Shown: positions 400 through 53,686 of the stretch, one piece after another
How the letters are laid out: each line of letters opens with the position of its first letter
How positions within the stretch are numbered: the stretch's first letter is position 1
Assembly (NCBI GenBank): GCA_944388705.1
Contig: CALXJU010000002.1
Location: 3,041 to 67,040 of the forward strand
Direction: 5' to 3'
From: an uncultured Clostridia bacterium
GTDB taxonomy: Bacteria > Bacillota > Clostridia > TANB77 > CAG-508
Length of the DNA: 64,000 nucleotides
Translations under genes and position numbers: made by a program
Notes under the pieces: model-generated
Databases searched by the model: none
What the model saw: only the letters and a program-made list of their open reading frames with translations
Told to the model about the DNA's origin: nothing

Positions 400-434
400 T
401 TATTCCTCCTATTTGTCAACTTTATTTAATTTAT

Positions 435-526
435 AGAAATTTATATATTACTATTGAATAAAGTCAAGACCCCCGACGAAGACCAGTGACATGTTTTGAC
501 TATGAAATAGTAATATATAAATTTCT
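435..526. repeat. Palindromic intergenic element, copy 1 (AT-rich stem, conserved G/C-rich apical core; inverted relative to copies 2 and 3)
   Basis: Arms AGAAATTTATATATTACTATT / AATAGTAATATATAAATTTCT enclose the core AAGACCCCCGACGAAGACC (reverse complement GGTCTTCGTCGGGGGTCTT). The same core occurs at 35241-35262 and 42368-42389. Confidence 0.85.
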
Positions 527-10356: not shown

Positions 10357-10604
10357 ATTATCACCCTCTCGTGTTGTTATAATATATTATTATTCAGTTT
10401 TTTTCAAGTGTTTTGGGATATTTTTATCAACCTCCTTTTTTACAGTTTTCGGTTTTTTTGGATTTTTTAGATTTTTTTGCTTTCCAAAGTTGTAATGCAA
10501 TTGAATTTTTGAATGAACAATATTATGTTACCATATTTTTCTTGTTTTATCAATAGCATTTTTAAATTATTTTTATATTAAATAATATTTTTATATTCTA
10601 TACA

Positions 10605-11013
10605 GGCTGATGTGGAGAGCCCCTTGCACATATGTATTAAATAAATGGAGAATTTTGTGCATCTAAACTTAACGTTAGAAAATCTTATATATTCAGATGA
10701 GGAATGTTCATGGGCAAGCTTATAAATATGTGTATTTTTCATAAACTGCCTCGACTACCCTACATAACGTTAACAAATTCTAAAACTAAAGTCACAACAA
10801 TACCCAAAAATGGGGACCTTTATGACTTTAGTTTAAGAATTTGTAACACTATTCCGGTCGTATTCGTTGTTTAATCAAAATAAACATATTTATAAGCTTG
10901 AGCCTGAATGAAAGCGGCTCATCTGAATATATTAGATTTTATACGGGAAGTTTGGCTTGTCCAAAATTTGGAATGCTTTAATACATATGTGCAAGGGGCT
11001 CTCCACATCAGCC
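10605..11013. repeat. 410-bp foldback: long imperfect inverted repeat with four near-perfect helices and an apical mini-hairpin
   Basis: Paired blocks are 10605-10641/10977-11013 (37 bp perfect), about 10679-10701/10918-10940 (22 of 23), 10716-10731/10884-10899 (16 bp perfect) and about 10769-10794/10823-10847 (1 bulge plus 1 mismatch). The apex is CCCAAAAATGGG, centred at 10809. Internal loops have matched sizes (37/36, 14/18 and 37/36 nt). Confidence 0.9.
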
Positions 11014-27942: not shown

Positions 27943-27967
27943 CACTTTATTGAGTGCTATTTTTTTC
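27933..27967. terminator. Bidirectional terminator at a 4-nt convergent gene junction
   Basis: TAGCACT (27940-27946) - TTATTG - AGTGCTA (27953-27959), flanked by an A-run (27934-27939) and a T-run (27960-27966). The hairpin overlaps the last codons of the 27947-28549 gene. Confidence 0.65.
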
Positions 27968-28549
27968 GTATTTTTCTCTTTCTTTACTTCTTTTTATTTT
28001 TTTAGTATTTGTTTTTTGTTCAAATATATATATTATTATTAATATTGCTAATATTATTCCTAATGTTGTTTTACTTTTTAGTGCTAATACTATTTTTCCT
28101 ATTTTGGGAATTACATTTATACATTTTCCTTCTATTTCGTCAAATGTTATTTTATCTTCATCTTCTGTATTATTTGCATCCCCTTGTGTTGTGTATAATA
28201 ATTCTCCATTTTCAGATTTTGATATTTTTATTATTCTATGTGTTATTGTTTCTCCTTTATGTTTAAATGCTATTATATCTCCTCTTTTTATTTCATTTTG
28301 CTCTACTTCTTTTATTATGACAATATCATTTACTGATATTGTTGGTTCCATACTTCCTGATATTATGCAAAATGTTTTTATTCCAAATACACTTGGAGTC
28401 TCATTTGGTTTTTGTATTGTTTGAATTATTATTATTAAATCCCACAATATTATTGGTAATAACAATATATATATTAATTTTACTAATGTATTTTTTATTG
28501 TTTTTATCACTTGTTTTTTTCTCATTTTTTCGTTGTAGTATTCTTCCAT
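27947..28549 (-). CDS. sipW: Signal peptidase I, ER/archaeal (SipW) type, paralog 1
   Basis: TM helix, then IISGSMEPT (Ser box), ITHRII (His box) and TQGDANNTEDE, with a C-terminal TM helix. This is the S26B layout. Confidence 0.85.
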   Translation of the reverse strand: MEEYYNEKMRKKQVIKTIKNTLVKLIYILLLPIILWDLIIIIQTIQKPNETPSVFGIKTFCIISGSMEPTISVNDIVIIKEVEQNEIKRGDIIAFKHKGETITHRIIKISKSENGELLYTTQGDANNTEDEDKITFDEIEGKCINVIPKIGKIVLALKSKTTLGIILAILIIIYIFEQKTNTKKIKRSKEREKYEKNSTQ

Positions 28550-28552
28550 TGT

Positions 28553-30169
28553 TTACCTTTCAGCATTATTTTTTAAATCTTCTAATATTTTGTTTGCTTT
28601 TAATATGAATTTTGCATCTTCTAAGTCTAATCCACTATTTTCTAAATTATATGCATTTACTAGTGTTTCTACTGTATTTACTAATGCCCCAATTGAAGAT
28701 TCTGATAAATCTTCTTTTGTTATATTTATATTAAATAAATTATATTTGTCTTTTATCATAAGTGCCATATCTTTTTCTTCTTTTATTGTTACATTATTTA
28801 TTATTGTTATATATGGGCTTGTGATAAATTTTCTTATTGCTACGACTGTTTCATTTATTTCTTTTTCAGGTATGTCAGGAAATTCTTTTATTATTGCTTC
28901 TACTAAAAATGTGTAAAATGAACCAGCTAAAAATAGTGCATCATATATTGTCGAATTATCTGTTAACATTGTTGATATTTTATCAAAAACTTTATCATCA
29001 TCTATTTTTCTATATAATTCTTTTAAATTTATTATTTGATTATTTATATCAATTGTTAATGTTTTTAATTTTTCTTCACTATTTTTCTTAAAGAATATCA
29101 TGTTTTTTAGTTTGTCTGTTTTTTCATATTTTTTATTTGTTTTTACTAATTTGCTTTCTAATTTTTGTATTTCTTTTTTTTGCCTTTCATATCCATTTTT
29201 GTATTTTTCTTTTTCTTTATATATTTTTAATAATTCATCAAATATAAATTTATATTTTAAATAATTTTGATATTCTTCTAATGTTTTTGATAATTTAACA
29301 ATATTTTCTTTTATATCATTAAGTTCTGTTTTGGCATAATTGTCTATTGGTTGTGCTAATATTTTTTCAAATTGTTTTTCTATTGCTATTGGCTCATAAT
29401 CTTTTGGGTCTAATTCTTTATTTAAAAATCTATCTAACATTAATTTTTTGTCAGGTCCTTTTAAATCATCTAATTTTGCTTTTAATGTTCTATATTTTTC
29501 TAAATATTCTCTATCAGATGTTTCTAAGTCTTTTAATATTAATTTGTTTTCATTTGCAAAATGTCTATCTATTTCTTTTTCATGTTTTAAATATAAATAT
29601 CTGATATTTAATTCTATGTGTACTATTATATCTGAACATTCCCAATATAATTTTTCAAATATGTCTTTCATTGTTTGTGAATTTACATCACCTTTTTTAT
29701 ATTCTCTGAAAAATACTTTCATATATCTTCTTGCAAATGGACTATAATTAAAATCTTCTGGTTTTAATTCAACTCCAACTTCTGCAAACCTTCTAATACA
29801 TGCTAATATATTATTATTTACTTGTTCTAGATTGTTTTTATAAAATCTTCTTAATATAAATAATAATTCATCTAATTTCATTTTTTCATATGATGTATTT
29901 CCTATTCCTAATAAATCTAAATTATTGAATTTTTCTAAGTCTTCTTCAACTTCTTTGATTTCTGGATTTTCTTTTATTTCATTTATTTTGTTAGTTCTAT
30001 CTTGTATTTCATTTATAATATTGCCTAGATATTTTTCATAATTTATTTTTATTTCTTGTACTTTTTTTATATATGATTCAAGATTTTTCTTTGTATTTTT
30101 TGGCAATACTGCTAATATTTCTTTGTCAGTATCTATTTTTTCATTTAATATCTCTATTGGACTACTCAT
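28553..30169 (-). CDS. Hypothetical cytoplasmic coiled-coil protein
   Basis: 538 aa, K/E-rich and helical, with no TM segment or signal. Its stop lies 3 nt upstream of the sipW paralog 1 start. Confidence 0.6.
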   Translation of the reverse strand: MSSPIEILNEKIDTDKEILAVLPKNTKKNLESYIKKVQEIKINYEKYLGNIINEIQDRTNKINEIKENPEIKEVEEDLEKFNNLDLLGIGNTSYEKMKLDELLFILRRFYKNNLEQVNNNILACIRRFAEVGVELKPEDFNYSPFARRYMKVFFREYKKGDVNSQTMKDIFEKLYWECSDIIVHIELNIRYLYLKHEKEIDRHFANENKLILKDLETSDREYLEKYRTLKAKLDDLKGPDKKLMLDRFLNKELDPKDYEPIAIEKQFEKILAQPIDNYAKTELNDIKENIVKLSKTLEEYQNYLKYKFIFDELLKIYKEKEKYKNGYERQKKEIQKLESKLVKTNKKYEKTDKLKNMIFFKKNSEEKLKTLTIDINNQIINLKELYRKIDDDKVFDKISTMLTDNSTIYDALFLAGSFYTFLVEAIIKEFPDIPEKEINETVVAIRKFITSPYITIINNVTIKEEKDMALMIKDKYNLFNINITKEDLSESSIGALVNTVETLVNAYNLENSGLDLEDAKFILKANKILEDLKNNAER

Positions 30170-30297
30170 TATTTTTTCTCCACCTCATTTGTTTTTATTT
30201 CATTTTCTAGAAATTCTATGTATTCTTCTGTTCTATTATAAATTTCTAGTAATTCTTCATTTGTTATTTTGCTTAAGTTTATTTCACTTATTTCCAT
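30169..30297 (-). CDS. Possible 42-aa small ORF translationally coupled to the 538-aa gene
   Basis: My translation is MEISEINLSKITNEELLEIYNRTEEYIEFLENEIKTNEVEKK. Its TAA overlaps the downstream ATG (TAATG). The SD is weak, and it falls below the ORF-track size cutoff. Confidence 0.3.
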   Translation of the reverse strand: MEISEINLSKITNEELLEIYNRTEEYIEFLENEIKTNEVEKK

Positions 30298-30376
30298 TGT
30301 TTCTTCTCATTCCTTTCGTACAGAATTATATATAAAAAAACTTTTTATGTCTATATCTTTTTTAAATTTTTTTAGT

Positions 30377-31414
30377 TTATATTGTTTCTTTTTTTTCATT
30401 TTCTTCTGATGTATTTTGTTCAGGTGTTTCTTCTTCTTTTGGTGGTTGAGTTTCTTCTGGTTGAACTTCTTCTGGTTCACTTTCTTCTGGTTTTTCTTCT
30501 GGCTTGTCCTCAGGATTTTCTTCTTCTCCTTGTTCTGGTGGTGTTATTGGTTCTTCTACTACTGGTTGGTCTGGTTGTTCTATAGGTTCCTGTATTACTG
30601 GTGGTTGTTCTGGTTGGGCTTGTGGTGTTGGTGTATAATTTTTCCATGGGTTTCCACTTGCTGGGTCTGTTGGGTCCCAACCTCTTACACTTTCTTCTCC
30701 TGATATTTTTTGTGCTGATGGTTTTCCTAATGGTCCTGGATTTGAGTCATAATAAAATTCTACTTGTGTACCTGCTGGACAATTATCATATATCCATTTT
30801 GCATCTCTTACTGTTAATCGTATACATCCTGCTGATGCTTTTGTTCCTAATTTATCATATTCCCAATATTCTAATGTTGATTTATCTTTACTTGTATATG
30901 GCACTGAATGGAATAATATACTTCCTTTTATTCTTACATAATATTGTGCCCATACTCCTCCTTCCATTTGTCCCCATGTCCATCTATCCCATGTCTTTCC
31001 TGGTATTGTATATACTCCTTCTGTTGGTGTTGCTTTTCCTATTGAACATATCATTGCTTTATATGGTACTGTGTAATTTCCATTTTTGTCTTTTGTATAT
31101 ATTGTTACTACATTTGCTTGATTATTTACTTTTATATAATATTTTATTTCTTGTTTTTTCTGCTCTACTTCTGGTTCTTCTTTTTCTTCAATTTGTTCTA
31201 CATTTGGTGGTGGTTCTTCTGAATTTATTTGTTGCCTATTTGTTGTTATTATTTCTGTTTTTTCTTGTTTTCCTATTTCTACTGTTTCTTGCATTACTTC
31301 TTTTGTTTCTTTTGACATGTTTATTATTGCTATTACTGCTAATATTAGTAATAATACTACTAATATTGATATTAATATTACTAGCCCCTTTTTTCTTTTT
31401 ATTTTTTCTAACAT
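30377..31414 (-). CDS. L,D-transpeptidase (YkuD domain), membrane-anchored, with a long acidic P/E-rich C-terminal tail
   Basis: YkuD catalytic motifs SILFHSVPY and ASAGCIRL. The tail reads PQAQPEQPPVIQEPIEQPDQPVVEEPITPPEQGEEENPEDKPEEKPEE... Confidence 0.85.
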   Translation of the reverse strand: MLEKIKRKKGLVILISILVVLLLILAVIAIINMSKETKEVMQETVEIGKQEKTEIITTNRQQINSEEPPPNVEQIEEKEEPEVEQKKQEIKYYIKVNNQANVVTIYTKDKNGNYTVPYKAMICSIGKATPTEGVYTIPGKTWDRWTWGQMEGGVWAQYYVRIKGSILFHSVPYTSKDKSTLEYWEYDKLGTKASAGCIRLTVRDAKWIYDNCPAGTQVEFYYDSNPGPLGKPSAQKISGEESVRGWDPTDPASGNPWKNYTPTPQAQPEQPPVIQEPIEQPDQPVVEEPITPPEQGEEENPEDKPEEKPEESEPEEVQPEETQPPKEEETPEQNTSEENEKKETI

Positions 31415-31489
31415 CTATATTTTCCTTTCCTATATTTTCCACCTTATTATATAGTTTTTTACACTTTTTTTCAAGATGTTTTTATATTT

Positions 31490-31531
31490 TTATACACAAA
31501 AGCACAAAATGTTTTTTCACATTTTGTGCTT
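31490..31531 (-). terminator. Rho-independent terminator after the tandem major-subunit genes
   Basis: Perfect 13-bp stem AAAGCACAAAATG (31498-31510) / CATTTTGTGCTTT (31519-31531). The minus strand then reads TGTGTATAAAAAT; the run of four U is supplied by the 3' arm of the stem itself (GCTTTT, counting the next base). Confidence 0.75.
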
Positions 31532-31537
31532 TCAAAA

Positions 31538-32548
31538 TTATGGTTTTTTTACTGATGGTTTTGTAAATCCTAATACTATGTCTATTGATTTACCTGTTGA
31601 TGCTGTATCAACATTGTCTGGGTCTTGTCCTTCTAACCATATATATACTCTTGCTTTCATTATTGAATTTTGTGCTAACATCATATTATCAGTACCTAAG
31701 TTTGTCATATTTGTAGCAGTTCCTACTGTTGCATCTGTTTTTAATGTTTTTTGCTCTCCTAAATTTTCATTAGCATTACCTGCTGTTAAATCTGGTACAT
31801 TAACTCCAGAAATTGTTCCTCCACCATTCTTTTTTACTCCTAATGTTGTAAATTCTGCTGTTGCATTTGGAACTCTTGTTGGGTCATTTCTTACAATTTC
31901 TGCTATATGTTTATTATAATTTGGTTCCCATATACATACTGTTGGTGTTCCAGGTGCTATTTGTCTAATATCTGTACCTGCTGCTGTCATAACTTCTTTA
32001 TTACTATATAATACAACTGCTGATCTTACACAGTTTTCTAGTCCTGTATTTTGTTTTCCGTCTGCTGCTATTGCAACTTTTGTACCTGTATTTAATTGTA
32101 ATATATCTCCATCTACTTTTGAAGATGAATTTTTAAAATATAAATCAAATGCTATATATTTTGTTGTATCTGCATCATTTTCTTGATCAACATTTGTTAA
32201 TTGTGTTCCATCTGCACTTATATCTCCATAAAACATATTCATCTCTCCAGAAGCTGTTTCTCCTACTGTTGATACTGGTACTAATGCCTCTGGCCAAGCA
32301 TAATTATTATCTATTGCTGCTGCTAAGTTCACTTTATTAATTGTTATTTTTGAACTCCATGCTTCTCCATCAAGTGATATCTGTAAACCTTCTGCAGCTA
32401 CAACTTTTGCATTTATTCCTTCAAGTGCAACTTCTTTGTTTGCTGAGAACCATGCATATGTTGATGATAATAGTAGCATTCCTATTAATATTGTTGTCAT
32501 AAATAAAGATTTTAGTCTTCTTTTACTTCTTCTACTTCTCCTACTCAT
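31538..32548 (-). CDS. SipW-cognate-signal secreted protein, TasA-like superfamily, 'major' paralog A1
   Basis: MSRRSRRSKRRLKSLF + TM helix + SSTYAWFSANKE, and the C-terminal motif ARVYIWLEGQDPDNVD. By eye it is roughly three-quarters identical to the next gene. Confidence 0.7.
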   Translation of the reverse strand: MSRRSRRSKRRLKSLFMTTILIGMLLLSSTYAWFSANKEVALEGINAKVVAAEGLQISLDGEAWSSKITINKVNLAAAIDNNYAWPEALVPVSTVGETASGEMNMFYGDISADGTQLTNVDQENDADTTKYIAFDLYFKNSSSKVDGDILQLNTGTKVAIAADGKQNTGLENCVRSAVVLYSNKEVMTAAGTDIRQIAPGTPTVCIWEPNYNKHIAEIVRNDPTRVPNATAEFTTLGVKKNGGGTISGVNVPDLTAGNANENLGEQKTLKTDATVGTATNMTNLGTDNMMLAQNSIMKARVYIWLEGQDPDNVDTASTGKSIDIVLGFTKPSVKKP

Positions 32549-32591
32549 AATCTTTCTCCTTTGATTTAATTATATAAATAATTAATTAATT

Positions 32592-33599
32592 TTAGCCACC
32601 TGGTTGTGTTACTGCTGGTTTTGTAAATCCTAATACTATATCTATTGATTTACCTGTTGATGCTGTATCTATACAATCTGGGTCTTGTCCTTCAAGCCAT
32701 ATATATATTCTTGCTTTCATTACAGAATTTTGTTTTAATTTTAGTTGAGTAGAACCATCTACTGCTGTCATATTTGTAGCAGTTCCTACTGTTGCATCTG
32801 TTTTAATTGTAGTTTGTTCTCCTAAAAATTCATTTGATGGGTCTGTTGCTACATTTATTCCTGTTACTGTTCCATCTCCTACAGATTTTAGTCCTAAAGT
32901 TGTAAAATCAGTATCTGCACTTGGTATTCTATCATTGTCATTTTTTACAACTTCTGCTATATGTTTATTATAATTTGGTTCCCATATACTTACTAATGGT
33001 GTTCCTGCTGCAATTGCTCTAATTGTTGCTCCATCATCTGTCATTAATGCTGTATTTTCATATAATACTATACTAGATCTTACACAGTTTTCTAGTCCTG
33101 TTCCTTGTTTTCCATCAACTGCATTTATTGCTACTTTTGTACCAACATTTAATTGTAAATCATCTGTTGGTTTTGAAGATGAGTTTTTAAAATATAAATC
33201 AAATACTATATATTTTGTTGTATCTGCATCAGATTCTATAGCTGCATTTGTTAATTCTGAACCATCTGCACTTACATCTCCATAAAACATATTCATGTTT
33301 CCTGATGCTGTTTCTCCTACTGTTGATACTGGTACTAAAGCATCTGGCCATTTATAGTTATTTGATACTGCTGCAGCTAAATTTTCTTTATTTATTGTTA
33401 TTTTTGAACTCCATGCTTCTCCATCAAGTGATATTTGCAAACCTTCTGCAGCTACAACTTTTGCATTTATTCCTTCAAGTGCAACTTCCTTGTTTGCTGA
33501 GAACCATGCATATGTTGATGTTACCATTAACATTGCTGTTAATATCAACATAATAAATAATGATTTTAATCTTCTTCTGTTACTTCTACTTCTTCTCAT
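32592..33599 (-). CDS. SipW-cognate-signal secreted protein, TasA-like superfamily, 'major' paralog A2
   Basis: MRRSRSNRRRLKSLF + TM helix + TSTYAWFSANKE, and the C-terminal motif ARIYIWLEGQDPDCID. It is a tandem duplicate of 31538-32548. Confidence 0.7.
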   Translation of the reverse strand: MRRSRSNRRRLKSLFIMLILTAMLMVTSTYAWFSANKEVALEGINAKVVAAEGLQISLDGEAWSSKITINKENLAAAVSNNYKWPDALVPVSTVGETASGNMNMFYGDVSADGSELTNAAIESDADTTKYIVFDLYFKNSSSKPTDDLQLNVGTKVAINAVDGKQGTGLENCVRSSIVLYENTALMTDDGATIRAIAAGTPLVSIWEPNYNKHIAEVVKNDNDRIPSADTDFTTLGLKSVGDGTVTGINVATDPSNEFLGEQTTIKTDATVGTATNMTAVDGSTQLKLKQNSVMKARIYIWLEGQDPDCIDTASTGKSIDIVLGFTKPAVTQPGG

Positions 33600-33613
33600 T
33601 TTTTTCTCTCCTT

Positions 33614-34327
33614 TTATATATTATTCTCTTGTTCAACATGCTCTTCCAAAATACTCATATGCATTTTAATTTCTCCACCTATTAAATCATCTAAGCATTC
33701 TGGGTCATTACCATCTATCCAAATTACGACAGTAATTTTATCTATCTCGCCAGAGTTAAAGTTTTCTCTAGGTTCGACTATGATTTCTTTTGCATCATTA
33801 AATGGGATTGTATTTCCTTCTGGTTCTTTTGTTGTACTATTTACTTTTGCATATACTTTTTTCTCTCCATTTAAAAATATTGTCACTCTCAATGCTTCAT
33901 CTACTCTTTTTATTACATCATCTAGTACAACTTGATACCAATAATTCATAGTATTGTCACTTCTGTTTTCTACATAGAATGTATATGCTATATAGTTTGT
34001 GCCATTGTGACTTCCTTCTGCCTGACTGTCAATATCTGCTGGTAGCCAACTTTCTGCTATATTTGTAAAAAAATCAACTGTATCTGCTTCTAATTTTTGC
34101 TGGGCCTTTTTTTCTTCTAGTTTATCATAAATTATTAGACCACTCATTGGGTCTCCTGCTTTATCTAATATTATCGTAAATCTTCCTGAATCATATACTA
34201 TTTTTAATATAAAATATATGATTAGTAAGAATATTACCATTATAACAAGCAGTCGCCTTATCCATCGTATTCTAGAATTTCTTTCGCTTATCTTGTTGGC
34301 ATTCTTTCGTATTCTCCTTTTTGACAT
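33614..34327 (-). CDS. Membrane-anchored paralog of the A family lacking the SipW cleavage motif
   Basis: MSKRRIRKNANK...RWIRR + TM helix, but no [ST]xA[WK][FY] motif. It shares NYIAYTFYVENRS (compare KYIAFDLYFKNSS) and ITVVIWIDGNDPECLD with the A1/A2 genes. Confidence 0.6.
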   Translation of the reverse strand: MSKRRIRKNANKISERNSRIRWIRRLLVIMVIFLLIIYFILKIVYDSGRFTIILDKAGDPMSGLIIYDKLEEKKAQQKLEADTVDFFTNIAESWLPADIDSQAEGSHNGTNYIAYTFYVENRSDNTMNYWYQVVLDDVIKRVDEALRVTIFLNGEKKVYAKVNSTTKEPEGNTIPFNDAKEIIVEPRENFNSGEIDKITVVIWIDGNDPECLDDLIGGEIKMHMSILEEHVEQENNI

Positions 34328-34424
34328 TTACATTCTACCTACCCCATTTGTTATTTCATCAAAAATGAACAAAATATGATATTTTTGTTATTTAAATTTT
34401 AGCATATTCGACTGTCAAATACAA

Positions 34425-34489
34425 TTACAAATATGTTACATTTATATTACATTTTTTTTTACATTTTTCTAATATTTTTGTAACATTTC
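34425..34489. promoter_or_regulatory. Phased TTACA(T/A) repeat array in a divergent promoter region
   Basis: TTACAA at 34425, then TTACAT at 34436, 34447 and 34459 (spacing 11, 11 and 12 bp), plus GTAACATT at 34480. The core matches the 26051-26094 array. Confidence 0.45.
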
Positions 34490-34551
34490 GTTTTTTTATT
34501 GTATTTTACTACATTTTATGCTATGCTTTTTTTAGTGTAATAGGAGGATTT

Positions 34552-35136
34552 ATGGATAAAAATTTAATTACTAAAAAGAAAGCTTTTTTATTACTTGCAT
34601 GTATTTGGCTTATTATTAGTCTTTCTGTAGTTCAAACTACATATGCTAAATATGTGACTAATTTAGATGCAAATGCAAATATTGCAATTTCATATTGGAA
34701 TATCTTAGTTAATAATCAAAATATCGCTGAAAACCCTGATATTAGTGCTACTATGACTGCTGTTTTTCCTGGTAATGAGTTTATGAAAAATGATGTTATT
34801 GTTCCAGGTGCAGTTGGTTATTTTGATTTAAATATAGATTCTTCAAATGTAACAGTTCCTTTTACTATAACTGTTACCACTTCAGTAAATGAAAATAGTT
34901 CTCTAACTATGGATTTCGTTGTTTCAGGTTATTCAATTAATAATGGAGAAATTATAGAACTTATAGATACTAATTCATTTTCTTATGATATTTCTTTGGA
35001 TGCTGATTCAACTATTATAAGAATTTACACAACCTGGTTAGATGATGGACTTGATTCAGTAGAAGATACAGCTCTAGGTATAGCTGGTGGTACTGCAATT
35101 TTAGATGTAACGTTAAACTTTGAACAAATTATATAG
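34552..35136 (+). CDS. SipW-cognate-signal secreted protein, TasA-like superfamily, B family
   Basis: Signal ending VVQTTYAKYVTN; VPGAVGYFDLNIDSSN (compare TasA/camelysin APGD...F.v.N); IRIYTTWLDDGLD; C-terminus LNFEQII. It is a paralog of 42482-43111 and 41225-41785. Confidence 0.65.
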   Translation: MDKNLITKKKAFLLLACIWLIISLSVVQTTYAKYVTNLDANANIAISYWNILVNNQNIAENPDISATMTAVFPGNEFMKNDVIVPGAVGYFDLNIDSSNVTVPFTITVTTSVNENSSLTMDFVVSGYSINNGEIIELIDTNSFSYDISLDADSTIIRIYTTWLDDGLDSVEDTALGIAGGTAILDVTLNFEQII

Positions 35137-35154
35137 GGACGGTTCTGTTTTGAA

Positions 35155-35336
35155 GGGGACGGTCCTTTTTGGTGCATTTATTATTTGTATTTAAATACGA
35201 AAAGATTATATATTACTATTCCATAGCCAAAACATATTCTGGGTCTTCGTCGGGGGTCTTGGCTTTATTTCATAGTAATATATAATCTTTTCGTTATAGT
35301 TATAAAGTAAAAAATGCATCAAAAAGGACCGTCCCC
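35155..35336. repeat. Palindromic intergenic element, copy 2, with an extra G/C-rich outer stem (182-bp hairpin) between convergent genes
   Basis: Outer stem GGGGACGGTCCTTTTTGGTGCATT (from 35155) / AATGCATCAAAAAGGACCGTCCCC (ending 35336). Inner arms GAAAAGATTATATATTACTATT / AGTAATATATAATCTTTTC. Core GGTCTTCGTCGGGGGTCTTGG at 35242-35262. Confidence 0.85.
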
Positions 35337-35338
35337 TT

Positions 35339-35986
35339 TTAAGCATTCTTTTGCTCAGCTTTTAATTTTATTTTTATTTCAATTGCTGATTTTCCTGTAT
35401 TTTGTTGATAATATTTATAACTATCTACTCCATATTGAGTATCAAGTTCATCATCACCACTTTCATATGCCCAGGTAAATTTAACATTTATTGTAGCTTC
35501 TCCACCATTCATTGCTAAATCTGTTGAACTTACATTTACAGTTATTTCAAAAGGAAAATCTTCTAATAGCATTTGAGCTAATTCTTCAGCTGTCATTTTT
35601 ATTTCAGTACCTGTTAAATTTTCTTTTTCTTCTGTTGATAATTCTTCTTCCACAATATATATATCGTCAAATATTCTGGCAGTAGTTATCACATAACTTA
35701 AAGTTGCATCTTTTTCTCCCGAATTATTAACAGTAACTGTTTTTTCGACCTCATCCATTCCAGGATATGCATGGTCTATTTCCAATACAAAATTATTTTC
35801 TATTACTTGATCTCCAACTTCAAAATTTACACTCCATGCATCAACATGTACTGTCATATTCGTAGATACTGTTGTTACATATAGAAACCAGGCGTATGTA
35901 TTAAAAATTAAAGTTAAAGAAAGTAAGAATAAAGTCTTTAATTTCAATCTTCTACGTTTTCTTCTTTCTTCTCTTTTTCTTTTCAT
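35339..35986 (-). CDS. SipW-cognate-signal secreted protein, TasA-like superfamily (last gene of the 8-gene operon)
   Basis: MKRKREERRKRRRLKLKTLF + TM helix + FNTYAWFLY; YPGMDEVEKTVTVNNSGEKDA (TasA-like PGx...N.G motif); FTWAYESGDDELD. Confidence 0.65.
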   Translation of the reverse strand: MKRKREERRKRRRLKLKTLFLLSLTLIFNTYAWFLYVTTVSTNMTVHVDAWSVNFEVGDQVIENNFVLEIDHAYPGMDEVEKTVTVNNSGEKDATLSYVITTARIFDDIYIVEEELSTEEKENLTGTEIKMTAEELAQMLLEDFPFEITVNVSSTDLAMNGGEATINVKFTWAYESGDDELDTQYGVDSYKYYQQNTGKSAIEIKIKLKAEQKNA

Positions 35987-36002
35987 TACATCCTCCTTTC
36001 TT

Positions 36003-36647
36003 CTATTCGTATCTTCTTCTACGTTTAGCTCTTTTTTCTTTTCGTTTTTTGGCTTTTTTATCTATAATTTTTTCATTATCATCTTTTTCTTCTGAATCAT
36101 CTTCATCTTCTTCATCATAATCTTCTTTTTCTTCTTTAAATGCTTTAAATTCTGTAAACATTATTATTGCAAGAGGTATTATTATTAAAAAATACATACC
36201 ATACATATTATTTATTATTCCATTTAAAAATGTTACTATTTGCAGTTTTGTCTGAACAACTCCATATATTTGTTCTTCACTAACTAATGGGTCTTCATCT
36301 TCATTTGCAATACCTTTTGTATGAAATTTTAGAAGTCCATCTTCCCCATTTTCTATATTTATTACTTGGTGTGTTACTATTTTATCTGCATAGCTTCCTA
36401 CTTTCCCCATATATGTAACATCGTCACCTATTTGTATGTTGCTTTTTTCTTCTTCTTTTACTAATATTACATCTCCTACTTTATATTTAGGTACCATACT
36501 TTCTGTTACTACTGTGAATATTCGATATCCTGCAAGTGATATGTTATTATTAGAAAATCTTTGTATTAGTATTACAGCTATAAATACTATTATTACTATT
36601 GTTAAAATAAATTTTATAGTAGATATTACAAATTTAACTGTTTTCAT
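36003..36647 (-). CDS. sipW: Signal peptidase I, SipW type, paralog 2, with a charged C-terminal extension
   Basis: VVTESMVPK (Ser box), VTHQVI (His box) and TKGIANEDEDP; a second TM helix; then the tail EEKEDYDEEDEDDSEEKDDNEK...KKAKKRKEKRAKRRRRYE. Confidence 0.75.
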   Translation of the reverse strand: MKTVKFVISTIKFILTIVIIVFIAVILIQRFSNNNISLAGYRIFTVVTESMVPKYKVGDVILVKEEEKSNIQIGDDVTYMGKVGSYADKIVTHQVINIENGEDGLLKFHTKGIANEDEDPLVSEEQIYGVVQTKLQIVTFLNGIINNMYGMYFLIIIPLAIIMFTEFKAFKEEKEDYDEEDEDDSEEKDDNEKIIDKKAKKRKEKRAKRRRRYE

Positions 36648-36658
36648 TTTTTCACCTT

Positions 36659-37762
36659 TTAAATGCTTACTTCACTGATTTTTTGAAAATATTTATCCAT
36701 ATATTTTCTAAATATTTTTTCAATATCTTTTTTAGATGCCATTCTGACTTCTTTTACTTTATCAAATTTGTCTCCTAGCTTTTCTTGCAATTGCTTTTTA
36801 GTCATTTCTGGATTCATTTCAATTATTTTGTCTAGCATACTTGATAGTGTTTTTTCTTTCGCTTTTTCAATATCTTCATTACTTGCTTTATTATTAATAG
36901 AGTTTACTGTTAAATATTCCAATAAGAAAGTCTGATCTATTAATTCTTTTAATTGGCTTTTATCTTGATAATCCTTTTTTTCTTGTTCAGGTTCATTTTT
37001 ATCAGCCATATGTTCCATAATGTAATCCCATAATTTCATTGCATATTGGAAATTTACATTTTTCAATATTACATTTGTCTTTTTTATCGGATTTGTAACA
37101 AAAGCCACTCCTTCTTTATCTAAGGCAAGATATACTTCTGAAAGCTTTAATGCTTTTATATCTGTTTCTATTTTTTTAATTCTTTCTTCATAATTTGGGT
37201 CTTTATTTAATGAAGTGTCAAGATCTGTATTTAATGTTATATTTACACTTACTTTTTCTTCTCCAACCATTGTTGTACTAGTATAATCTATTTTTTTATT
37301 ATCTCTAAGTCTTGGATCTTTATTTGTATTATCTAGTTTTAATCTTATAAATTGTTCCATATATGCTATTAGTGTGTAAATAAATCTATTTTCATATGTA
37401 TTAAATGTTTCTTCTTTAAATACATTTAATAATTTTGATGGTATTACATCTCCTGTATCTTCATCTAAATCTTGTATAAAGTTTGTATGTTTTGCTAAAT
37501 GTTTTATTGTTTCTACTCCTACTTTTTTTGCTTGTTCTACTTTTATAATTTCTTCTTCTGTTGTTATAAATCTTTTAGGATTTCTTACTATTTTATCCAA
37601 ATATGGAAGGGTAAATTCAAATAAATCTACCCATTTATCATCAAAACTATCTCTAAAATAATCTGTCTGTACTCTCATGCTTGAATCTAGATTACTACCA
37701 AAATCACTTACTTTACTTTCATCTACTTGATTGACTAAATCATTTACATCTAATCCTGCCAT
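36659..37762 (-). CDS. Hypothetical soluble helical protein, candidate partner of the AAA+ NTPase (weak McrC/DUF2357-N-like resemblance, no nuclease motif seen)
   Basis: 367 aa. The segment FNTYENRFIYTLIAYMEQFI is recalled from memory as similar to DUF2357/McrC N-domains. The C-terminal half is K/E-rich coiled coil, and I found no PD-(D/E)xK motif. Confidence 0.35.
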   Translation of the reverse strand: MAGLDVNDLVNQVDESKVSDFGSNLDSSMRVQTDYFRDSFDDKWVDLFEFTLPYLDKIVRNPKRFITTEEEIIKVEQAKKVGVETIKHLAKHTNFIQDLDEDTGDVIPSKLLNVFKEETFNTYENRFIYTLIAYMEQFIRLKLDNTNKDPRLRDNKKIDYTSTTMVGEEKVSVNITLNTDLDTSLNKDPNYEERIKKIETDIKALKLSEVYLALDKEGVAFVTNPIKKTNVILKNVNFQYAMKLWDYIMEHMADKNEPEQEKKDYQDKSQLKELIDQTFLLEYLTVNSINNKASNEDIEKAKEKTLSSMLDKIIEMNPEMTKKQLQEKLGDKFDKVKEVRMASKKDIEKIFRKYMDKYFQKISEVSI

Positions 37763-37774
37763 TATTTTTCTCCT

Positions 37775-39304
37775 TTATGCAGATTTCTTTAATCTTAATA
37801 AATATTCTATACATTCTGCCATTGCACCTTTTCCAAATGTATCATCTAAAAATTTTATGTATGGATCTATTTCGTCTTTTATTAATGCCATATTTAATTG
37901 TTCAAATTTTCTTAATATTTTTTTAGCAATAAAGTAATCTACTCCTTCTACTTCTGTTCCTCCACATGCTACATATACTGGTACAAATTTTTTCATATGT
38001 GCTACAATACGGTTACCAAATGCTATACGGAAATGTGCTATTACATAATCATCCATTTGCTCTATTTTGTCTAATGTGTCTTGTGATATTGCATATGTTT
38101 CCATTGCTTCTGAAAATATTCTATCTAAGTATGAATAATTTACATCCATTGCATCTCTTTGTTCTGGTACAAATACTTTTCCTTTATCATTTATATCTAT
38201 AGGCATAGCTCTATCATATACCTTATCTGTTACAGCAAATGTAGAGTCGTCGTTATTGATTGTACCTATGTACCACATATTTGCTGGTACTTGTATTTTT
38301 CCAAACATTAATTTTTTAGGGTCTGTTGGCCAACTATTTGGTACAACTTCTATTACCCATTCTTTTTTGTTAGGCATTTCTAGTATTGATAACATTTCTG
38401 CAAAATAATATTCAACACGTGATAAGTTCATCTCGTCTAATATTATTGTATATATATCATCTGTATAATTTGCTATATACATTTCTTTTAATATATCTGT
38501 TTCATTAAATTTCTTTGTAAATTCGTTGAAATATCCAAAAAGGTCTGTTCTATCTCTCCATGATGGTTGTACTGATGCTACACATGAATCATGTTTTAAG
38601 AATTTTCCCCATGCATATGCAAGAGATGTTTTACCTGTACCAGAAATACCTTGTAATATTACTAATTTTGTTGATGCTATTCCTGCAATAAATATTCTCA
38701 TCATTTTTTCTGTATAATATAATTTTAATTTTGATGCAGCATAATTTCTAAAGTTGAAGCAAAATTCTGGTAAATCAAATGAGTTATTATAATTTTGTAT
38801 TTTATAATTGGCATATTCCATATCTATTAATGATAGTTTTGCAAAACGTTGTGTTGTTGATGGATCAACTTCTTCTCCTTCTTCACCATTTTGAGGAGTT
38901 TCTTCATCTAATTCTGATGGTTTTAATCCTAATTGTGATACTTTCATTGCTAATATTTCATCTTTTTCTTTTGATAATTTGACCACTTTTTTATTTAATG
39001 TTGCAACTTCATCTAATAATGCCTCTTGGTCTGTTACTGGCTTTCTTAGCTTAGCATATTTTTTTACTATAAATAATACTAAAAATACTATTAATCCTAA
39101 AAAAATTACTACAAATAATATTGATAATACTGCCATTACCCATTCAGGTGCAGAAAAGTCTGCATAATAGTTTCTAAACACTTCCATATATTGCTTTATA
39201 TTAAACATTTGCTTAATACCATCTATTAAGCCTTTAAATATCATTAATATTCCTGAAACTGTTTGATTTATAAATTCATATAAAAATCTTACAAATGTAT
39301 CCAT
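37775..39304 (-). CDS. Membrane-anchored McrB-like AAA+ (AAA_5) NTPase
   Basis: TM helix WVMAVLSILFVVIFLGLIVFLVLFIV, then a coiled coil. Walker A LQGISGTGKTS, Walker B plus McrB-type segment IILDEMNLSRVEYYFAEMLSILE, then YIGTINNDDSTFAVTDKVYDRA. I chose the start at MDTFVRF (AGGGG SD); the longest ORF extends to 39322. Confidence 0.75.
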   Translation of the reverse strand: MDTFVRFLYEFINQTVSGILMIFKGLIDGIKQMFNIKQYMEVFRNYYADFSAPEWVMAVLSILFVVIFLGLIVFLVLFIVKKYAKLRKPVTDQEALLDEVATLNKKVVKLSKEKDEILAMKVSQLGLKPSELDEETPQNGEEGEEVDPSTTQRFAKLSLIDMEYANYKIQNYNNSFDLPEFCFNFRNYAASKLKLYYTEKMMRIFIAGIASTKLVILQGISGTGKTSLAYAWGKFLKHDSCVASVQPSWRDRTDLFGYFNEFTKKFNETDILKEMYIANYTDDIYTIILDEMNLSRVEYYFAEMLSILEMPNKKEWVIEVVPNSWPTDPKKLMFGKIQVPANMWYIGTINNDDSTFAVTDKVYDRAMPIDINDKGKVFVPEQRDAMDVNYSYLDRIFSEAMETYAISQDTLDKIEQMDDYVIAHFRIAFGNRIVAHMKKFVPVYVACGGTEVEGVDYFIAKKILRKFEQLNMALIKDEIDPYIKFLDDTFGKGAMAECIEYLLRLKKSA

Positions 39305-39311
39305 TATACCC

Positions 39312-40325
39312 CTATCCTTCATCTATTATTAAATTTTTTAATTCATCTGCATTTTCTTTGAATTCTTCAAAATATTCAAGTTTTTTGCTTACGATTACAT
39401 AATTAAATATTTCTAATTTTCTTATATGTTCTCTACTTATTATAAATGAGTCATCTATTATTATAGCAAATTTATATCCACTTTTCATTAATTCATATAT
39501 TTCATTTCTATGTATTATAAAATCTCTATATTTTACTTTTATTTTTATTTTTTCTTGTATTGATGGGTCATTTATTATACGTAATATTTGTTCTAATTTT
39601 TTCCTTTTTTCAAATAATGTCATTGGAAATTCTACTAAATATTGAGTATTAAATTTCCCTTCTAATATCATTCTTATATTATAAACTGTTAACATTAAAT
39701 ATTGTATTATTAATTTATCTTCATTTACTATATTTTCATTATACACATCTGTTATTGCTCTATTGCTAAAAATATATGGAAATTTAAAATTGTATTTTAA
39801 ATCAACTTTATATACATCTTTTATTAATGGATATTTGGTAATTACAAGTTCAAAATCATCTGATTCGAATTGTTTTAGATATTTTTCTTTTTTATCTCTA
39901 TATTCTCTTATCATTTTATAAAGATTATCTCGTAATTCTCCATCTCTTTTCATTTCAAATTTAGTTATTCTTTTTTCATACATCTCATTTATAAATTCTC
40001 TCCATTCTTTATGTAATGGACGTACAAAATCTATGTAAAATATATATTGATATGTTTCTAACATATTTCTAATTACTGGATGATTTTCTTCATATTGATT
40101 GAATTCTAGCTTAGTCGCTGATTTCTGTAATGCAGAATATATTCTTCTATAAAATACTCTTTGTTTTTCATTTCCTCCATAATTATTATATCTGGCTTCT
40201 ATATAAGTTTCTATAAATTCTTTTGATATATTTTCATCATATTTTTCTTTAAAAAATTCTTTCATAAATTCTTTTAAAAATTTTTTTGTGTATTCTATAT
40301 ATTCTGCCATTATATTATATGTCAT
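39312..40325 (-). CDS. Hypothetical cytoplasmic protein; the C-terminal half may be a degenerate EAL-like domain
   Basis: 337 aa with no TM segment. The layout LVEFPMTLF...IKIKVKY...LMKSGYKFAIIIDDSFIISREHIRKLEIFNYVIVSKK parallels the EAL-domain strands (vNlS...lEitE...L..G..ialDDFGtGys...d.lKiD), but the catalytic residues are replaced. Confidence 0.3.
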   Translation of the reverse strand: MTYNIMAEYIEYTKKFLKEFMKEFFKEKYDENISKEFIETYIEARYNNYGGNEKQRVFYRRIYSALQKSATKLEFNQYEENHPVIRNMLETYQYIFYIDFVRPLHKEWREFINEMYEKRITKFEMKRDGELRDNLYKMIREYRDKKEKYLKQFESDDFELVITKYPLIKDVYKVDLKYNFKFPYIFSNRAITDVYNENIVNEDKLIIQYLMLTVYNIRMILEGKFNTQYLVEFPMTLFEKRKKLEQILRIINDPSIQEKIKIKVKYRDFIIHRNEIYELMKSGYKFAIIIDDSFIISREHIRKLEIFNYVIVSKKLEYFEEFKENADELKNLIIDEG

Positions 40326-40340
40326 ATTTTCACCTCTTTT

Positions 40341-41195
40341 TTAGTATGTTAGTGTGATTACTGGAGGTTCAGTACTTCCAGCTTCGTGTGTATAGTTTTG
40401 CGTTGGGTCTATTTTATAAAATTTTACTGTTGTTGTTTGAAGTGTATCTACAAATGATGTTACTGAATTTACATATGAATACCCATTTATTTCAGTTGTT
40501 GTAGTTGCTGTTGAATTTAAGTAATAACTACTTGTCATATCAAGTAATATTATATTAGGGTCAAATGATAATTTTACATCTTTTCCTATATCTAATGAGT
40601 TTGTTATATTTACTTCTAAGTATGGACTGTTTTCTGAGTCCATTATTTCATATGATATATCTTCTGTTCCTACTCCTACTATTAATCTTCCACTTAATGT
40701 TTTTTCATATGGTGATGTTGATGTTACCTCAACTTCTACCCATGTGGTTTCTCCATTTGCTAATGCTTGTCCTCCTGCTGGATTTATTTTTATTGTGAAA
40801 TAGTCTTCATTTATTCCTCCATTTTGACTCCCTATTATTGTCCCACTATTTTTACTTAATTCACATTCAATATTATCTGAATGTGTTAAATTTACAGTAT
40901 AGTCTATATCTGTTTCTGCAAATAATAAGTCATTTTTTTTACTATTTAAGTTTATTGTTATTGTATATGTTTCTGCTCCTGACCAGTTATTTGCTATTTC
41001 AAATTCTGCGTGGTCTGTTGTTAGTTTATCACTATTAAAATAAAATCCTTTTGAACCTAAATAATAATCTTGTACTGCATTATATACATATTTTGATAAA
41101 CTTGTCATTGTTGGCACAAGTATAACTATTATTATCAGAATAATTAATAATGGTATTATTTTATTATTTCTTTTTTTTCTCCTTCTCCTTGTCAT
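40341..41195 (-). CDS. Secreted protein with SipW-like signal (MTSLSKYVYN), beta-rich
   Basis: MTRRRRKKRNNK + TM helix + PTMTSLSKYVYNAV. 284 aa, T/S/N-rich and probably all-beta. Confidence 0.5.
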   Translation of the reverse strand: MTRRRRKKRNNKIIPLLIILIIIVILVPTMTSLSKYVYNAVQDYYLGSKGFYFNSDKLTTDHAEFEIANNWSGAETYTITINLNSKKNDLLFAETDIDYTVNLTHSDNIECELSKNSGTIIGSQNGGINEDYFTIKINPAGGQALANGETTWVEVEVTSTSPYEKTLSGRLIVGVGTEDISYEIMDSENSPYLEVNITNSLDIGKDVKLSFDPNIILLDMTSSYYLNSTATTTTEINGYSYVNSVTSFVDTLQTTTVKFYKIDPTQNYTHEAGSTEPPVITLTY

Positions 41196-41224
41196 TTGAA
41201 CTTCCTTTTCTTACTAATTATTTA

Positions 41225-41785
41225 TTATACAATTTGTTCAGAATTTATTGTAATTTCAACAGCTTCTATTATTCCCTGATACTCTACTGAATTTAGTTCT
41301 TTAGGGAATGTTACTTCTAACCTATAATTATTTATCTCATCAGTTTCAAATCCAAATGTGTTTTCACTTGATGTTATTGTTTTAAAATATGTACCATATT
41401 CATCTTGTGTAGTTTGGTAATCTCTAAATAAGTCATCTGCTCCATCATTCATATATAAACTATATGTTAACGGAAGATTTGTTGTCATTCGTATTGATAT
41501 GGTATATTTTAATGCTGTTTCTGTTCTATCTGTTCCATCATTATTTGCTATAGAAAAATTGTATATGTATTTTTCATCACTTGGAATCATTTCTTCTAAT
41601 GCTATTGTTTCTGATATTTTTTGTTCTTTTAACAAATAAAATGCTACATCTACATTTGCTTCTGATTTTCCTGATGAACTATATCTTGCTAATGTTCCCT
41701 TTAGTATGAATATTAGGATAATTATTAATACAAATATTATTATTATTTTTTTATAAAATTTGTTCTTTCTTCTCCTTCTACTCAT
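41225..41785 (-). CDS. SipW-cognate-signal secreted protein, TasA-like superfamily, B family
   Basis: MSRRRRKNKFYKK + TM helix + KGTLARYSSSGK. The C-terminus ITINSEQIV matches LNFEQII of 34552-35136. It overlaps the upstream sipW paralog by 8 nt. Confidence 0.6.
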   Translation of the reverse strand: MSRRRRKNKFYKKIIIIFVLIIILIFILKGTLARYSSSGKSEANVDVAFYLLKEQKISETIALEEMIPSDEKYIYNFSIANNDGTDRTETALKYTISIRMTTNLPLTYSLYMNDGADDLFRDYQTTQDEYGTYFKTITSSENTFGFETDEINNYRLEVTFPKELNSVEYQGIIEAVEITINSEQIV

Positions 41786-42305
41786 TTTTATTCCTTTCGT
41801 TTTTTATTTTTTCTGTTTTATCTTTTGATATTGCTAATCCTATTAATACAAGTGTGATAAATATTGATATTAAAACATTTGGCTCTGTAAAAACTTTTGC
41901 CCAAATTCCAACTCTGGGATATACTGAAACAACTTTTCCTATTACTGCATCTTTTGTAATTTCTTCGTCTTCAGTATTATTTGCATCTCCTTTTGTTACT
42001 AATTTATCTCCATTTATCTTCATTATTCTATGTGTTATTAAGTCATTGTCTTTTTTGAATGTTATTATGTCATTTTCTTTTACATCTTTTGTTATCTTTA
42101 CTAATATTACGTCATATACATTTAATGTTTTTGCCATACTTCCTGTTTTTATTTCAAATATTGTATATCCAAAAAAGTTCGTATAGTCTTTATTCATTAT
42201 TTGTAATTGTATATAGTTATATCCAACTATTAGCACTATCAAAAAAACTATTACTATTATTATATTTAATATAATATGTGCTATTTTTTCAAATATTTTG
42301 TACAT
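41778..42305 (-). CDS. sipW: Signal peptidase I, SipW type, paralog 3
   Basis: EIKTGSMAKT (Ser box), ITHRIM (His box) and TKGDANNTEDEE, plus a C-terminal TM helix. Confidence 0.8.
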   Translation of the reverse strand: MYKIFEKIAHIILNIIIVIVFLIVLIVGYNYIQLQIMNKDYTNFFGYTIFEIKTGSMAKTLNVYDVILVKITKDVKENDIITFKKDNDLITHRIMKINGDKLVTKGDANNTEDEEITKDAVIGKVVSVYPRVGIWAKVFTEPNVLISIFITLVLIGLAISKDKTEKIKNERNKNE

Positions 42306-42321
42306 TTTTAATCCTTTCTTT

Positions 42322-42423
42322 GCATAATATTTATATATATAACTATTTCATAGCAAAACCATATCTGGGGCTTTCGTCGGGGAGCTTTGCTTTATTACAT
42401 AGTTATATATATAAATATTATGC
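42322..42423. repeat. Palindromic intergenic element, copy 3 (same orientation as copy 2)
   Basis: Arms GCATAATATTTATATATATAACTATTTCATAG / ACATAGTTATATATATAAATATTATGC. The core GGGGCTTTCGTCGGGGAGCTTTGC lies at 42367-42390. Confidence 0.85.
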
Positions 42424-42481
42424 AAAAATTATGTAAAAATTAATTAAAACTAATTAAAACTAATTTCAATTATCTATTAAA

Positions 42482-43111
42482 CTAAGGATTATATTCTTCT
42501 ATATTTTCTCCCAAATATTGACTTGCTTTTACTTCTACTGGTATAGATATTTGTATGTCTTTTTGCAATCCTAATTCTGAATCTGCTTCGTCATTTACTC
42601 CTGTTCCATCATCATCCCAACCTAAATAAACTCTGATTGTATTTGTTTTTTTATTTTGTATGTCATCTAGGCTAACTACTCCTGTATAAGTACTTTCTCC
42701 TGTTTTTGTTATTCCTTCTGTTGACTCTACTCCATCTACTACTTTTACTAATCTTGCAAAATATATAGAATCTGTTAAATCTAGTTGTTCAAAATTTATT
42801 GATACATCATATCTTACTGCAACACTTGCTTCTGTTGCATCTATTTCTACATCAAAATATCCTAGCAAACCTGGCGCAATTTTTCCCTCTAACACATAAT
42901 CATTTGAATTATATGTTAATTCATTTATAGTAAATTCTTGTGAATCTGTTCCTGTTGCTATATTTGTTCCATTTACTTTTACTATCCATGCTCCTATTTG
43001 TTCTTCTATTGTTCCTTTTGCTTCTGTATAGTATTTAGCATATGCACTATTTATTTGATATAGTGTAATTATTAACATTATTAATGCTGATAATATCCAT
43101 ATTTTTCTCAT
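42482..43111 (-). CDS. SipW-cognate-signal secreted protein, TasA-like superfamily, B family
   Basis: Signal ending YQINSAYAKYYTE; APGLLGYFDVEIDATE; IRVYLGWDDDGTG. Confidence 0.65.
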   Translation of the reverse strand: MRKIWILSALIMLIITLYQINSAYAKYYTEAKGTIEEQIGAWIVKVNGTNIATGTDSQEFTINELTYNSNDYVLEGKIAPGLLGYFDVEIDATEASVAVRYDVSINFEQLDLTDSIYFARLVKVVDGVESTEGITKTGESTYTGVVSLDDIQNKKTNTIRVYLGWDDDGTGVNDEADSELGLQKDIQISIPVEVKASQYLGENIEEYNP

Positions 43112-43127
43112 ATTTCTTTCCTTTGTT

Positions 43128-53584: not shown

Positions 53585-53600
53585 ACTATTTTTCTCCTTC

Positions 53601-53650: not shown

Positions 53651-53686
53651 ACATCTATTTTTCCTTTATATCATATATAGGCTTTT

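Follow-up and report, generated by a model that had tools for sequence, protein, structure and literature searches.

The 64,000-nt stretch analysed here (the window) is a chromosomal segment with a base composition of 25–32% GC, and its gene content includes polA, recA, ruvB, mutS, addA, pnp and rpsO together with sporulation genes. It carries three copies of a palindromic repeat, referred to below as A copies. Copy 1 (435–526, minus strand), recognised by its fold, its inverted arms and a match to the covariance model, is located between slt (544–1128, minus) and a HAD/PGP-phosphatase gene (1–399, minus), with its core in the sense orientation relative to both. Copy 2 (35198–35293, plus) occupies a convergent gap between genes at 34552–35136 (plus) and 35339–35986 (minus), where it is nested inside a larger palindrome (35155–35336). 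Copy 3 (42319–42426, plus) separates a TasA-like gene (42482–43111, minus) from sipW (41778–42305, minus), its core being antisense to both. The original prediction had named copies at these three places, and all of them are confirmed.

Two of the three copies in the window fall within a region (27947–43628) whose repeated gene clusters encode SipW-like signal peptidases (27947–28549 and 41778–42305). Several paralogous secreted proteins encoded there have no Pfam match and appear TasA/camelysin-like by eye, and a DUF2357 protein is encoded at 36659–37762.

The element is a unit of 92–108 nt that forms a hairpin, with perfect inverted arms flanking an asymmetric core of about 52 nt that contains TTCGTCGGGG. 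The perfect arms of copies 1, 2 and 3 comprise 21, 23 and 28 bp, respectively, within the range of 18–28 bp (median 21) observed across intact copies. In copy 1, read on the minus strand, the 5' arm AGAAATTTATATATTACTATT (506–526) is the inverted partner of the 3' arm (435–455), and the core between them (456–505) includes the decamer (471–480) and helix 2, in which GTCAA (496–500) pairs with TTGAC (463–467). The core of copy 2 (35220–35271, plus) has its decamer at 35246–35255, with GCCAA (35226–35230) paired to TTGGC (35259–35263). In copy 3 the 5' arm TTTGCATAATATTTATATATATAACTAT (42319–42346, plus) is matched by a partner arm at 42399–42426; the core (42347–42398) carries the decamer at 42373–42382 and pairs GCAAA (42353–42357) with TTTGC (42386–42390). 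The covariation of this closing helix (GTCAA/TTGAC, GCCAA/TTGGC, GCAAA/TTTGC), pointed out in the original prediction, was quoted correctly and holds in 30 aligned copies.

A short helix closes the core and contains an A·C mismatch that is conserved in 30 of 30 copies; the core further comprises a variable 8-nt patch and a near-invariant GGKYYTTCGTCGGGGRKC followed by CTTTATT. The internal loops are unequal (7 versus 8 nt), which, together with the conserved A·C mismatch, gives the centre of the core a conserved polarity. Two GGGTCTT direct repeats, about 12–13 nt apart, can be seen in the core sequence. TTCGTCGGGG, described as invariant in the original prediction, is not strictly so: one orthologous lineage has TTCGTCGAGG instead.

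These repeats are not chance occurrences. With at most one mismatch, TTCGTCGGGG is found three times in the window versus 0.01 times expected by chance. Relative to shuffled sequences, all three copies fold with z scores of −7 to −11 as RNA and −6.5 to −8.9 as DNA. A covariance model, built from 30 copies and run across the window without filters, recovered these three copies only, with 110–129 bits on the forward strand and 46–53 bits on the reverse strand; the best unrelated hairpin in the window reached 25 bits. A literature search with the core and the motif strings of the B family (described below) returned nothing but unrelated primers.

The distribution of the family is narrow. When TTCGTCGGGGNNCTTNNCTTTAT was searched for in 185,579 species, each represented by a single genome, 28 stretches were returned, 27 of them from uncultured Clostridia and one a chance match in Arthrobacter. 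The 27 stretches belong to five related 26%-GC Clostridia assemblies from the human gut, among which CALXXZ alone accounts for 18 loci. A scan of JGI metagenomes added only two further copies, both diverged, while no copies were found among IMG/VR viral contigs, PLSDB plasmids or GenBank phages. Beyond the window, at least 30 copies are known, confined to the five related assemblies and two metagenome contigs. The DNA of the window is 88–91% identical to parts of two of the element-bearing assemblies. At one locus (L001:4560–4640, minus) a full copy is preceded, about 90 nt upstream, by a truncated second copy in tandem, which consists of the core with TTCGTCGGGG and the right arm and has no left arm.

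All copies are intergenic, and none lies inside a gene. Among the 29 copies with genes called on both sides, 28 adjoin at least one gene 3' end: 19 are in tandem gaps (core sense in 12, antisense in 7), nine are in convergent gaps and one is in a divergent gap. The neighbours are mostly ordinary housekeeping genes (such as dnaK, mreB, hrcA, nrdD, clpB and relA). There is no strand bias relative to GC skew (15:15), and no target-site duplication was detected, the best flanking direct repeat averaging 1.7 nt in the copies and 1.7 nt in mismatched controls.

Adjacency to gene 3' ends and the enrichment of convergent gaps (9 of 29) are what would be expected of a cis-acting structured RNA, namely a 3'-UTR hairpin, an intrinsic terminator, an RNase III processing site or an RNA-stability element. 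The original prediction listed a terminator or processing site among the candidate roles. Also in favour are the high stability of the long hairpin, the conservation of copy 1 between species (see below) and the outcome of a simple terminator scan, which flagged in the core of all three copies, and there on the forward strand only, a small G+C hairpin preceding CTTTATT. However, the element does not have the anatomy of an intrinsic terminator: its long stem is A+T-rich and its orientation to the upstream gene is mixed, while the arrangement of A-run, GC stem and T-run belongs to the outer B arms and not to the present element. The orientation of the core relative to flanking transcription (12 sense and 7 antisense) is random, and at one locus the core has flipped, so that the asymmetric core is not consistently readable in a transcript. 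No Rfam family matched at gathering scores anywhere in the window, a search that the original prediction had called for; at a permissive E-value, the region 35100–35400 yielded only generic long-hairpin models (plant miRNA precursors), far below their gathering scores.

Promoter-like hexamers are present in both orientations, which weakens the idea of an invertible promoter with its −35 element in the core and its −10 element in an arm. In a relative that lacks copy 1 (L077–L085:1268–1312, compared with window positions 400–434), the slt–HAD gap contains a good promoter (TTGACA, 17 nt, TAATAT). In the element-bearing lineages this TTGACA is kept, but it stands only 17 nt before the ATG, and the HAD gene would therefore be expressed by read-through or from the promoter-like hexamers of the element (TTGACT, 16 nt, TATAAA).

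Sequence conservation is highest at the centre of the element and lowest at its ends, the opposite of what is seen in MITEs and REPINs. Identity between genomes is 96% in the apex, 87% in the closing helix and 88% in the inner arm, and falls to 69% in the 8-nt patch, 60% in the outer arm and about 38% in the flanks. Across the 30 aligned copies, 97.9% of stem cells are paired and changes on both sides are found in 16 of 28 pairs; 0 of 500 shuffles reached the observed values, and slid registers also came nowhere near them. Covariation is therefore strong in this larger copy set.

The nature of this covariation is nonetheless not that of an RNA. Of 840 stem cells, 817 are Watson-Crick pairs, four are G·T, five are A·C and 14 are other mismatches, corresponding to only four and five possible G·U pairs on the two strands. 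A-T to T-A swaps, for which no wobble state lies in between, make up many of the double changes. Structural selection on an RNA would leave wobble intermediates on one of the strands. Their near-absence on either strand argues for maintenance at the DNA level rather than selection on RNA, and the stem covariation, although real, points to a process of the DNA kind. The helix-2 variants exist in only three states that are common to subfamilies, and their covariation thus represents few independent events. All four combinations of helix-2 type and patch type occur, which indicates exchange between copies or recurrent change. Covariation does not support the apical mini-hairpin with a GUCG loop, and pairing improves when the register is shifted by one. 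Considering all this, a strand-specific structured RNA is unlikely, although it fares best among the alternatives to the reading preferred below. The other part of the original prediction, a hairpin that presents a fixed asymmetric apex and is actively maintained, is supported, and templated repair, which it had offered as a cause, is favoured by the nearly pure Watson-Crick stems, the mirrored differences between arms and the inversion of a core in situ. Its interpretation as a whole is partly supported; the flipping of the core, the nesting at palindrome apexes and the restriction to one small clade were not part of it.

Orthologous loci, collected by exact-protein look-ups of the flanking genes and their homologues, reveal how the element changes. 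At the copy 3 locus (tasA-like/sipW) the core is antisense in the window, in at least eight other strains and in the sister species CALXXZ, whereas in one strain lineage of the window species (L039 from Logan and L046 from ENA) it is sense. The 28-bp arms of L039 and L046 are identical to those of the other strains and the locus-specific core signature AAAACCATATCTGGGGCTTTCG is the same, only its orientation being opposite; the core has thus been inverted in situ. The two sequences come from different assemblers, with about 1% divergence from the other strains outside the core, and since the 28-bp arms are shorter than the Logan k of 31, the inversion is not a k-mer artefact. Across copy 3, sample SAMEA6814445 / ERZ28614683 is 100% identical to the window, and SRR13089946 has the flipped allele. 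In a further lineage (P0123, SipW 86% identical, L090–L095) the same arms enclose a sense core of the common family-consensus subtype, meaning that here the core has been replaced by one of another subtype. In a fourth lineage (77% identical, L096) the site is devoid of the element and the intergenic gap is 15 nt.

The arms at this locus evolve in concert. Between the window species and CALXXZ they differ at no fewer than six positions, and in each species the two arms match each other perfectly over 20–28 bp; a possible 2-nt indel between the species is present in only one of the two CALXXZ arms. The clear evidence for change of the core consists of one inversion in situ and one replacement, both at the copy 3 locus. 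Four lineages compared at the copy 1 locus and six strains compared at the copy 2 locus showed no flip. Next to copy 3 (42427–42481), units of 10–11 nt (ttagttttaa and cataatttttg) vary in number among strains (L039, L041, L044, L046, L059 and L065), giving intergenic lengths of 167, 177 or 188 nt.

Contig ends within the core in Logan assemblies are explained by the collapse of repeats at k = 31 and not by inversion. Short metagenome contigs (L052:1048–1330 and L053:1702–1980, compared with window positions 35140–35340, and L092:1–30) match the window only up to the A core and continue with a different arm and unrelated downstream DNA; these junctions represent either recombination between copies or chimeric assembly at the repeat.

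The element of the copy 1 locus (slt/HAD) has the same orientation in four lineages, with orthologues in L015 and L069–L076, and the site is empty in a fifth lineage (L077–L085). Copy 1 is 95.7–96.7% identical between lineages, versus 79–81% at third codon positions of the two flanking genes. It retains a signature of its own, the GTCAA/TTGAC helix and the ATCAC patch, and has therefore not simply been homogenised by other copies. Copy 1 is thus individually under purifying selection, which purely selfish behaviour would not predict. Copy 2 is identical in strains L035, L049–L051 and L054. Presence/absence differences are also found elsewhere. Positions 63470–63485 of the window are without an element, while an 89%-identical relative (L007) has there, downstream of the orthologous gene, an A copy together with about 45 nt of additional sequence (L007:3522–3651). 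At another intergenic site an A copy is present in L019 and a B half-element in L023. Among the loci compared, there was no clean pair of filled and empty sites that fixes the insertion junctions.

The occurrence of both core orientations between identical arms at the tasA-like/sipW locus, within the window species as well as in the P0123 lineage, brings to mind miniature invertons, in which a site-specific recombinase would flip the 52-nt core, switch a directional signal (a −35 box or a terminator-like hairpin) and cause phase variation of the neighbouring genes. In the cwpV switch of Clostridioides difficile, for example, a terminator forms in one orientation only. The random orientation of the core across the family and the position of two window copies in a surface-fibre-like TasA/SipW gene cluster agree with this idea. 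Against it, the inverted allele is that of one strain lineage, about 1% diverged, which does not resemble rapid switching; no flips were seen at the loci of copies 1 and 2; most neighbours are housekeeping genes, and one third of the copies lie between convergent genes; promoter-like hexamers are found in both orientations; and no recombinase gene was found in the window. A distance of 52 bp between recombination sites is also very short for a recombinase synapse. Miniature invertons are thus very unlikely.

A second characteristic of the family is its nesting. In 19 of 32 copies the flanks extend as a larger palindrome, beyond all 50 shuffles, and at least three unrelated families of outer palindromes enclose A copies. 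The outer arms of 14 copies consist of one or two 20-nt units containing GGGGACGGTCC, as around copy 2. Such units belong to a separate family, named B, with the dyad GGGGAC-N-GTCCCC. The outer left arm of copy 2 (35136–35186, plus) comprises two 20-nt GGGACGGTYC units (35136–35145 and 35156–35165) and TTTTTGGTGCATTT, and the outer right arm (35305–35345, minus) comprises one B unit (35326–35335) followed by a T-run. Four copies in the CAKOXV assembly have outer arms of a different family, which also forms a palindrome of about 410 nt at 10600–11010 of the window, and a third type of outer arm is found at L008. In composites with B arms, the two outer arms agree at 38–40 of 40 positions in six of eight compared, the other two being mis-registered, and the left B arms of different composites are about 88% alike; the B arms thus behave like the arms of the A copies. 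The asymmetric spacers of the B-enclosed composites L009 and L020 are AT-rich and align too weakly for core flips there to be more than hinted at.

In the B family the dyad is flanked by an A-run and a T-run, and an arm usually has two 20-nt units in tandem, the arms being inverted relative to each other. B sites are located at 35136–35165, 35326–35336 and 53600–53660 of the window, at L018:5373–5432 and at L023:4590–4640. The GC-rich 11-mer of this family is matched five times versus 0.12 expected, a strong over-representation for a 26%-GC genome, and the compact B hairpin without an A copy resembles an intrinsic terminator acting in both directions. The nested palindrome of about 410 nt (10600–11010) lies upstream of ymdB, in a 721-nt gap between an SBP_bac_5 gene and an ORF of 119 aa. 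It has perfect outer arms of 37 bp (GGCTGATGTGGAGAGCCCCTTGCACATATGTATTAAA) and at least three inner hairpin layers, and its arm family encloses A copies in another genome (L005, L013 and L028). It matched no Rfam family, and a look-up through YmdB for the same palindrome (10.6–11.0 kb) in other strains found nothing.

A copies favour palindrome apexes and gene 3' ends, perhaps because hairpin loops are targeted, or perhaps simply because such DNA is tolerated there. One may imagine a putative hairpin-specific enzyme that recognises the core, inserts the unit at palindrome apexes and inverts or exchanges the core. If this were so, a reversible directional signal would be present at dozens of gene 3' ends in each genome, and the family would be a mobile miniature inverton for which there is no described system of the kind. 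We regard this possibility as a long shot.

A search for a partner enzyme gave no candidate. Pfam scans of 43 of the 49 ORFs called in the window found no mobile-element gene, including no transposase, recombinase or enzyme of the HUH/RAYT type that the original prediction had named as a candidate, and none stands out among 150 neighbour genes of other copies scanned in the same way. Three YhgA/Rpn-like “Transposase_31” paralogues in CALXXZ were considered as the partner and rejected, their flanks being free of A-like and B-like repeats. These three diverged paralogues of the PF04754 family (PD-(D/E)XK nuclease) are encoded at L027:1176–2198, L027:6567–7433 and L014:3–947, a few kb from A copies.

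A protein of the host could be the partner instead. The element would then be a binding site on a cruciform-prone palindrome, comparable to REP/BIME sequences bound by gyrase or IHF, non-mobile and kept for the benefit of the host. Such a function would not depend on orientation, and it would suit the strongly conserved core, the constraint on an old orthologous copy and the two GGGTCTT direct repeats. Copies, however, turn over between close relatives, only a handful of species carry the family and nothing points to a binding protein, making a host-maintained site a decidedly improbable explanation. The least probable reading of all is a classical MITE, that is, a deletion derivative of an IS with a DDE transposase mobilised via its terminal inverted repeats: the element is small, AT-rich, non-coding, intergenic, present in at least 30 copies in one lineage and bounded by inverted repeats, but it has no target-site duplication, its arm ends are the least and its centre the most conserved part, arm variants within a genome change on both sides together, as recognition of the ends by a transposase would not predict, and about 280 kb of related sequence (the window and about 220 kb of loci) contained no IS of element length bounded by these ends. 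Dif/Xer-like arms, CtsR or Spo0A boxes in the core and a retron msd were dismissed as weak or chance-level resemblances by eye with the wrong anatomy, and an integron attC site was dismissed since here the base is variable and the centre conserved, and the copies are solitary and dispersed rather than arranged in cassette arrays.

Overall, the repeats are best explained, with a probability of roughly 0.6, as a family of palindromic interspersed repeats that is non-coding, restricted to one lineage, active at the DNA level, REPIN/MITE-like and probably non-autonomous. The arms recombine with or template each other, by which Watson-Crick complementarity is kept; the core occasionally inverts, and cores are swapped between copies. 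Copies reside in intergenic DNA at gene 3' ends and are gained and lost between related species with no target-site duplications. Arm-to-arm recombination or template switching would explain at once why changes are “compensatory”, why orientation is mixed and why wobble pairs are absent. The conserved core may be what a trans-acting protein encoded elsewhere, either a mobilising enzyme or a host protein, recognises in a sequence-specific manner, and the arms would need only to pair. Some long-lived copies may have gained a local constraint, possibly a cis-regulatory one. What suggests mobility is solely the presence/absence of copies among relatives and their dispersal.

The analysis brings to light a repeat family that had not been described, in gut Clostridia that are poorly known and very AT-rich, and shows cleanly, in a natural case, how exchange between inverted repeats at the DNA level produces apparent RNA-like covariation. 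It is also a warning for covariation-based discovery of RNAs, shuffle tests being maximally “significant” here. The element breaks metagenome assemblies and may cause chimeric joins. Should a protein partner of the core exist, the family could be a route to a hairpin-recognising enzyme not known before.

Among known systems, invertons such as cwpV, fimS of E. coli and the capsule promoters of Bacteroides likewise have inverted repeats flanking a segment found in both orientations at one locus. Unlike them, the present family has an invertible segment of only 52 nt, and each genome contains about 20 or more homologous copies, most of which adjoin the 3' ends of housekeeping genes; its flips appear rare, and a recombinase was not found in the window. 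Kelchner and Wendel reportedly described, in 1996, minute inversions of hairpin loops in chloroplast non-coding DNA, where loops are said to flip recurrently without a dedicated recombinase. At chloroplast sites of this kind the stems stay complementary, and the sites are usually downstream of genes. These are single-copy hairpins of an organelle, whereas the present family is dispersed and homologous, with a core conserved in sequence.

SPRITE and BOX of Streptococcus pneumoniae are also dispersed intergenic repeats of a Firmicute, and SPRITE is similar to a Rho-independent terminator. BOX has a modular build in which the outer modules are complementary, resembling the composites of B arms and spacers that enclose an A copy. 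There is, however, no sequence relationship, and the present core is asymmetric, conserved, able to flip and nested in several unrelated outer families. The bcr1 repeat of the Bacillus cereus group is another small interspersed repeat of Firmicutes in which compensatory changes keep a long double-stranded fold. It is flanked by 5-bp direct repeats and was described as conserved at the RNA level (Delihas, 2011, PMC3184786), whereas the present family lacks target-site duplications and has stems that pair in the Watson-Crick manner only.

The closest known system is that of REPINs, doublets of REP sequences that form hairpins and are mobilised by RAYT tyrosine transposases (Bertels and Rainey, 2011, PMC3116915). 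Both are extragenic, hairpin-forming, non-coding repeats of about 70–110 nt with compensatory changes common on both sides of the hairpin, long vertical inheritance and a transposase that is not inside the element, and the lack of target-site duplications in the present family is a further likeness. In REPINs, however, the ends (REP 16-mers) are invariant and the spacer is variable, while in the present family the centre is conserved most and the ends least; its arms have no internal mini-palindrome of the REP type, no RAYT gene was found in the window or among the 150 neighbours of other copies, and its hosts are 26%-GC Firmicutes. The conserved centre, the lack of target-site duplications, the flipping of the core and the nesting set the family apart from REPINs, bcr1, SPRITE and BOX, and it is thus an undescribed family within a known class, the small palindromic interspersed repeats.
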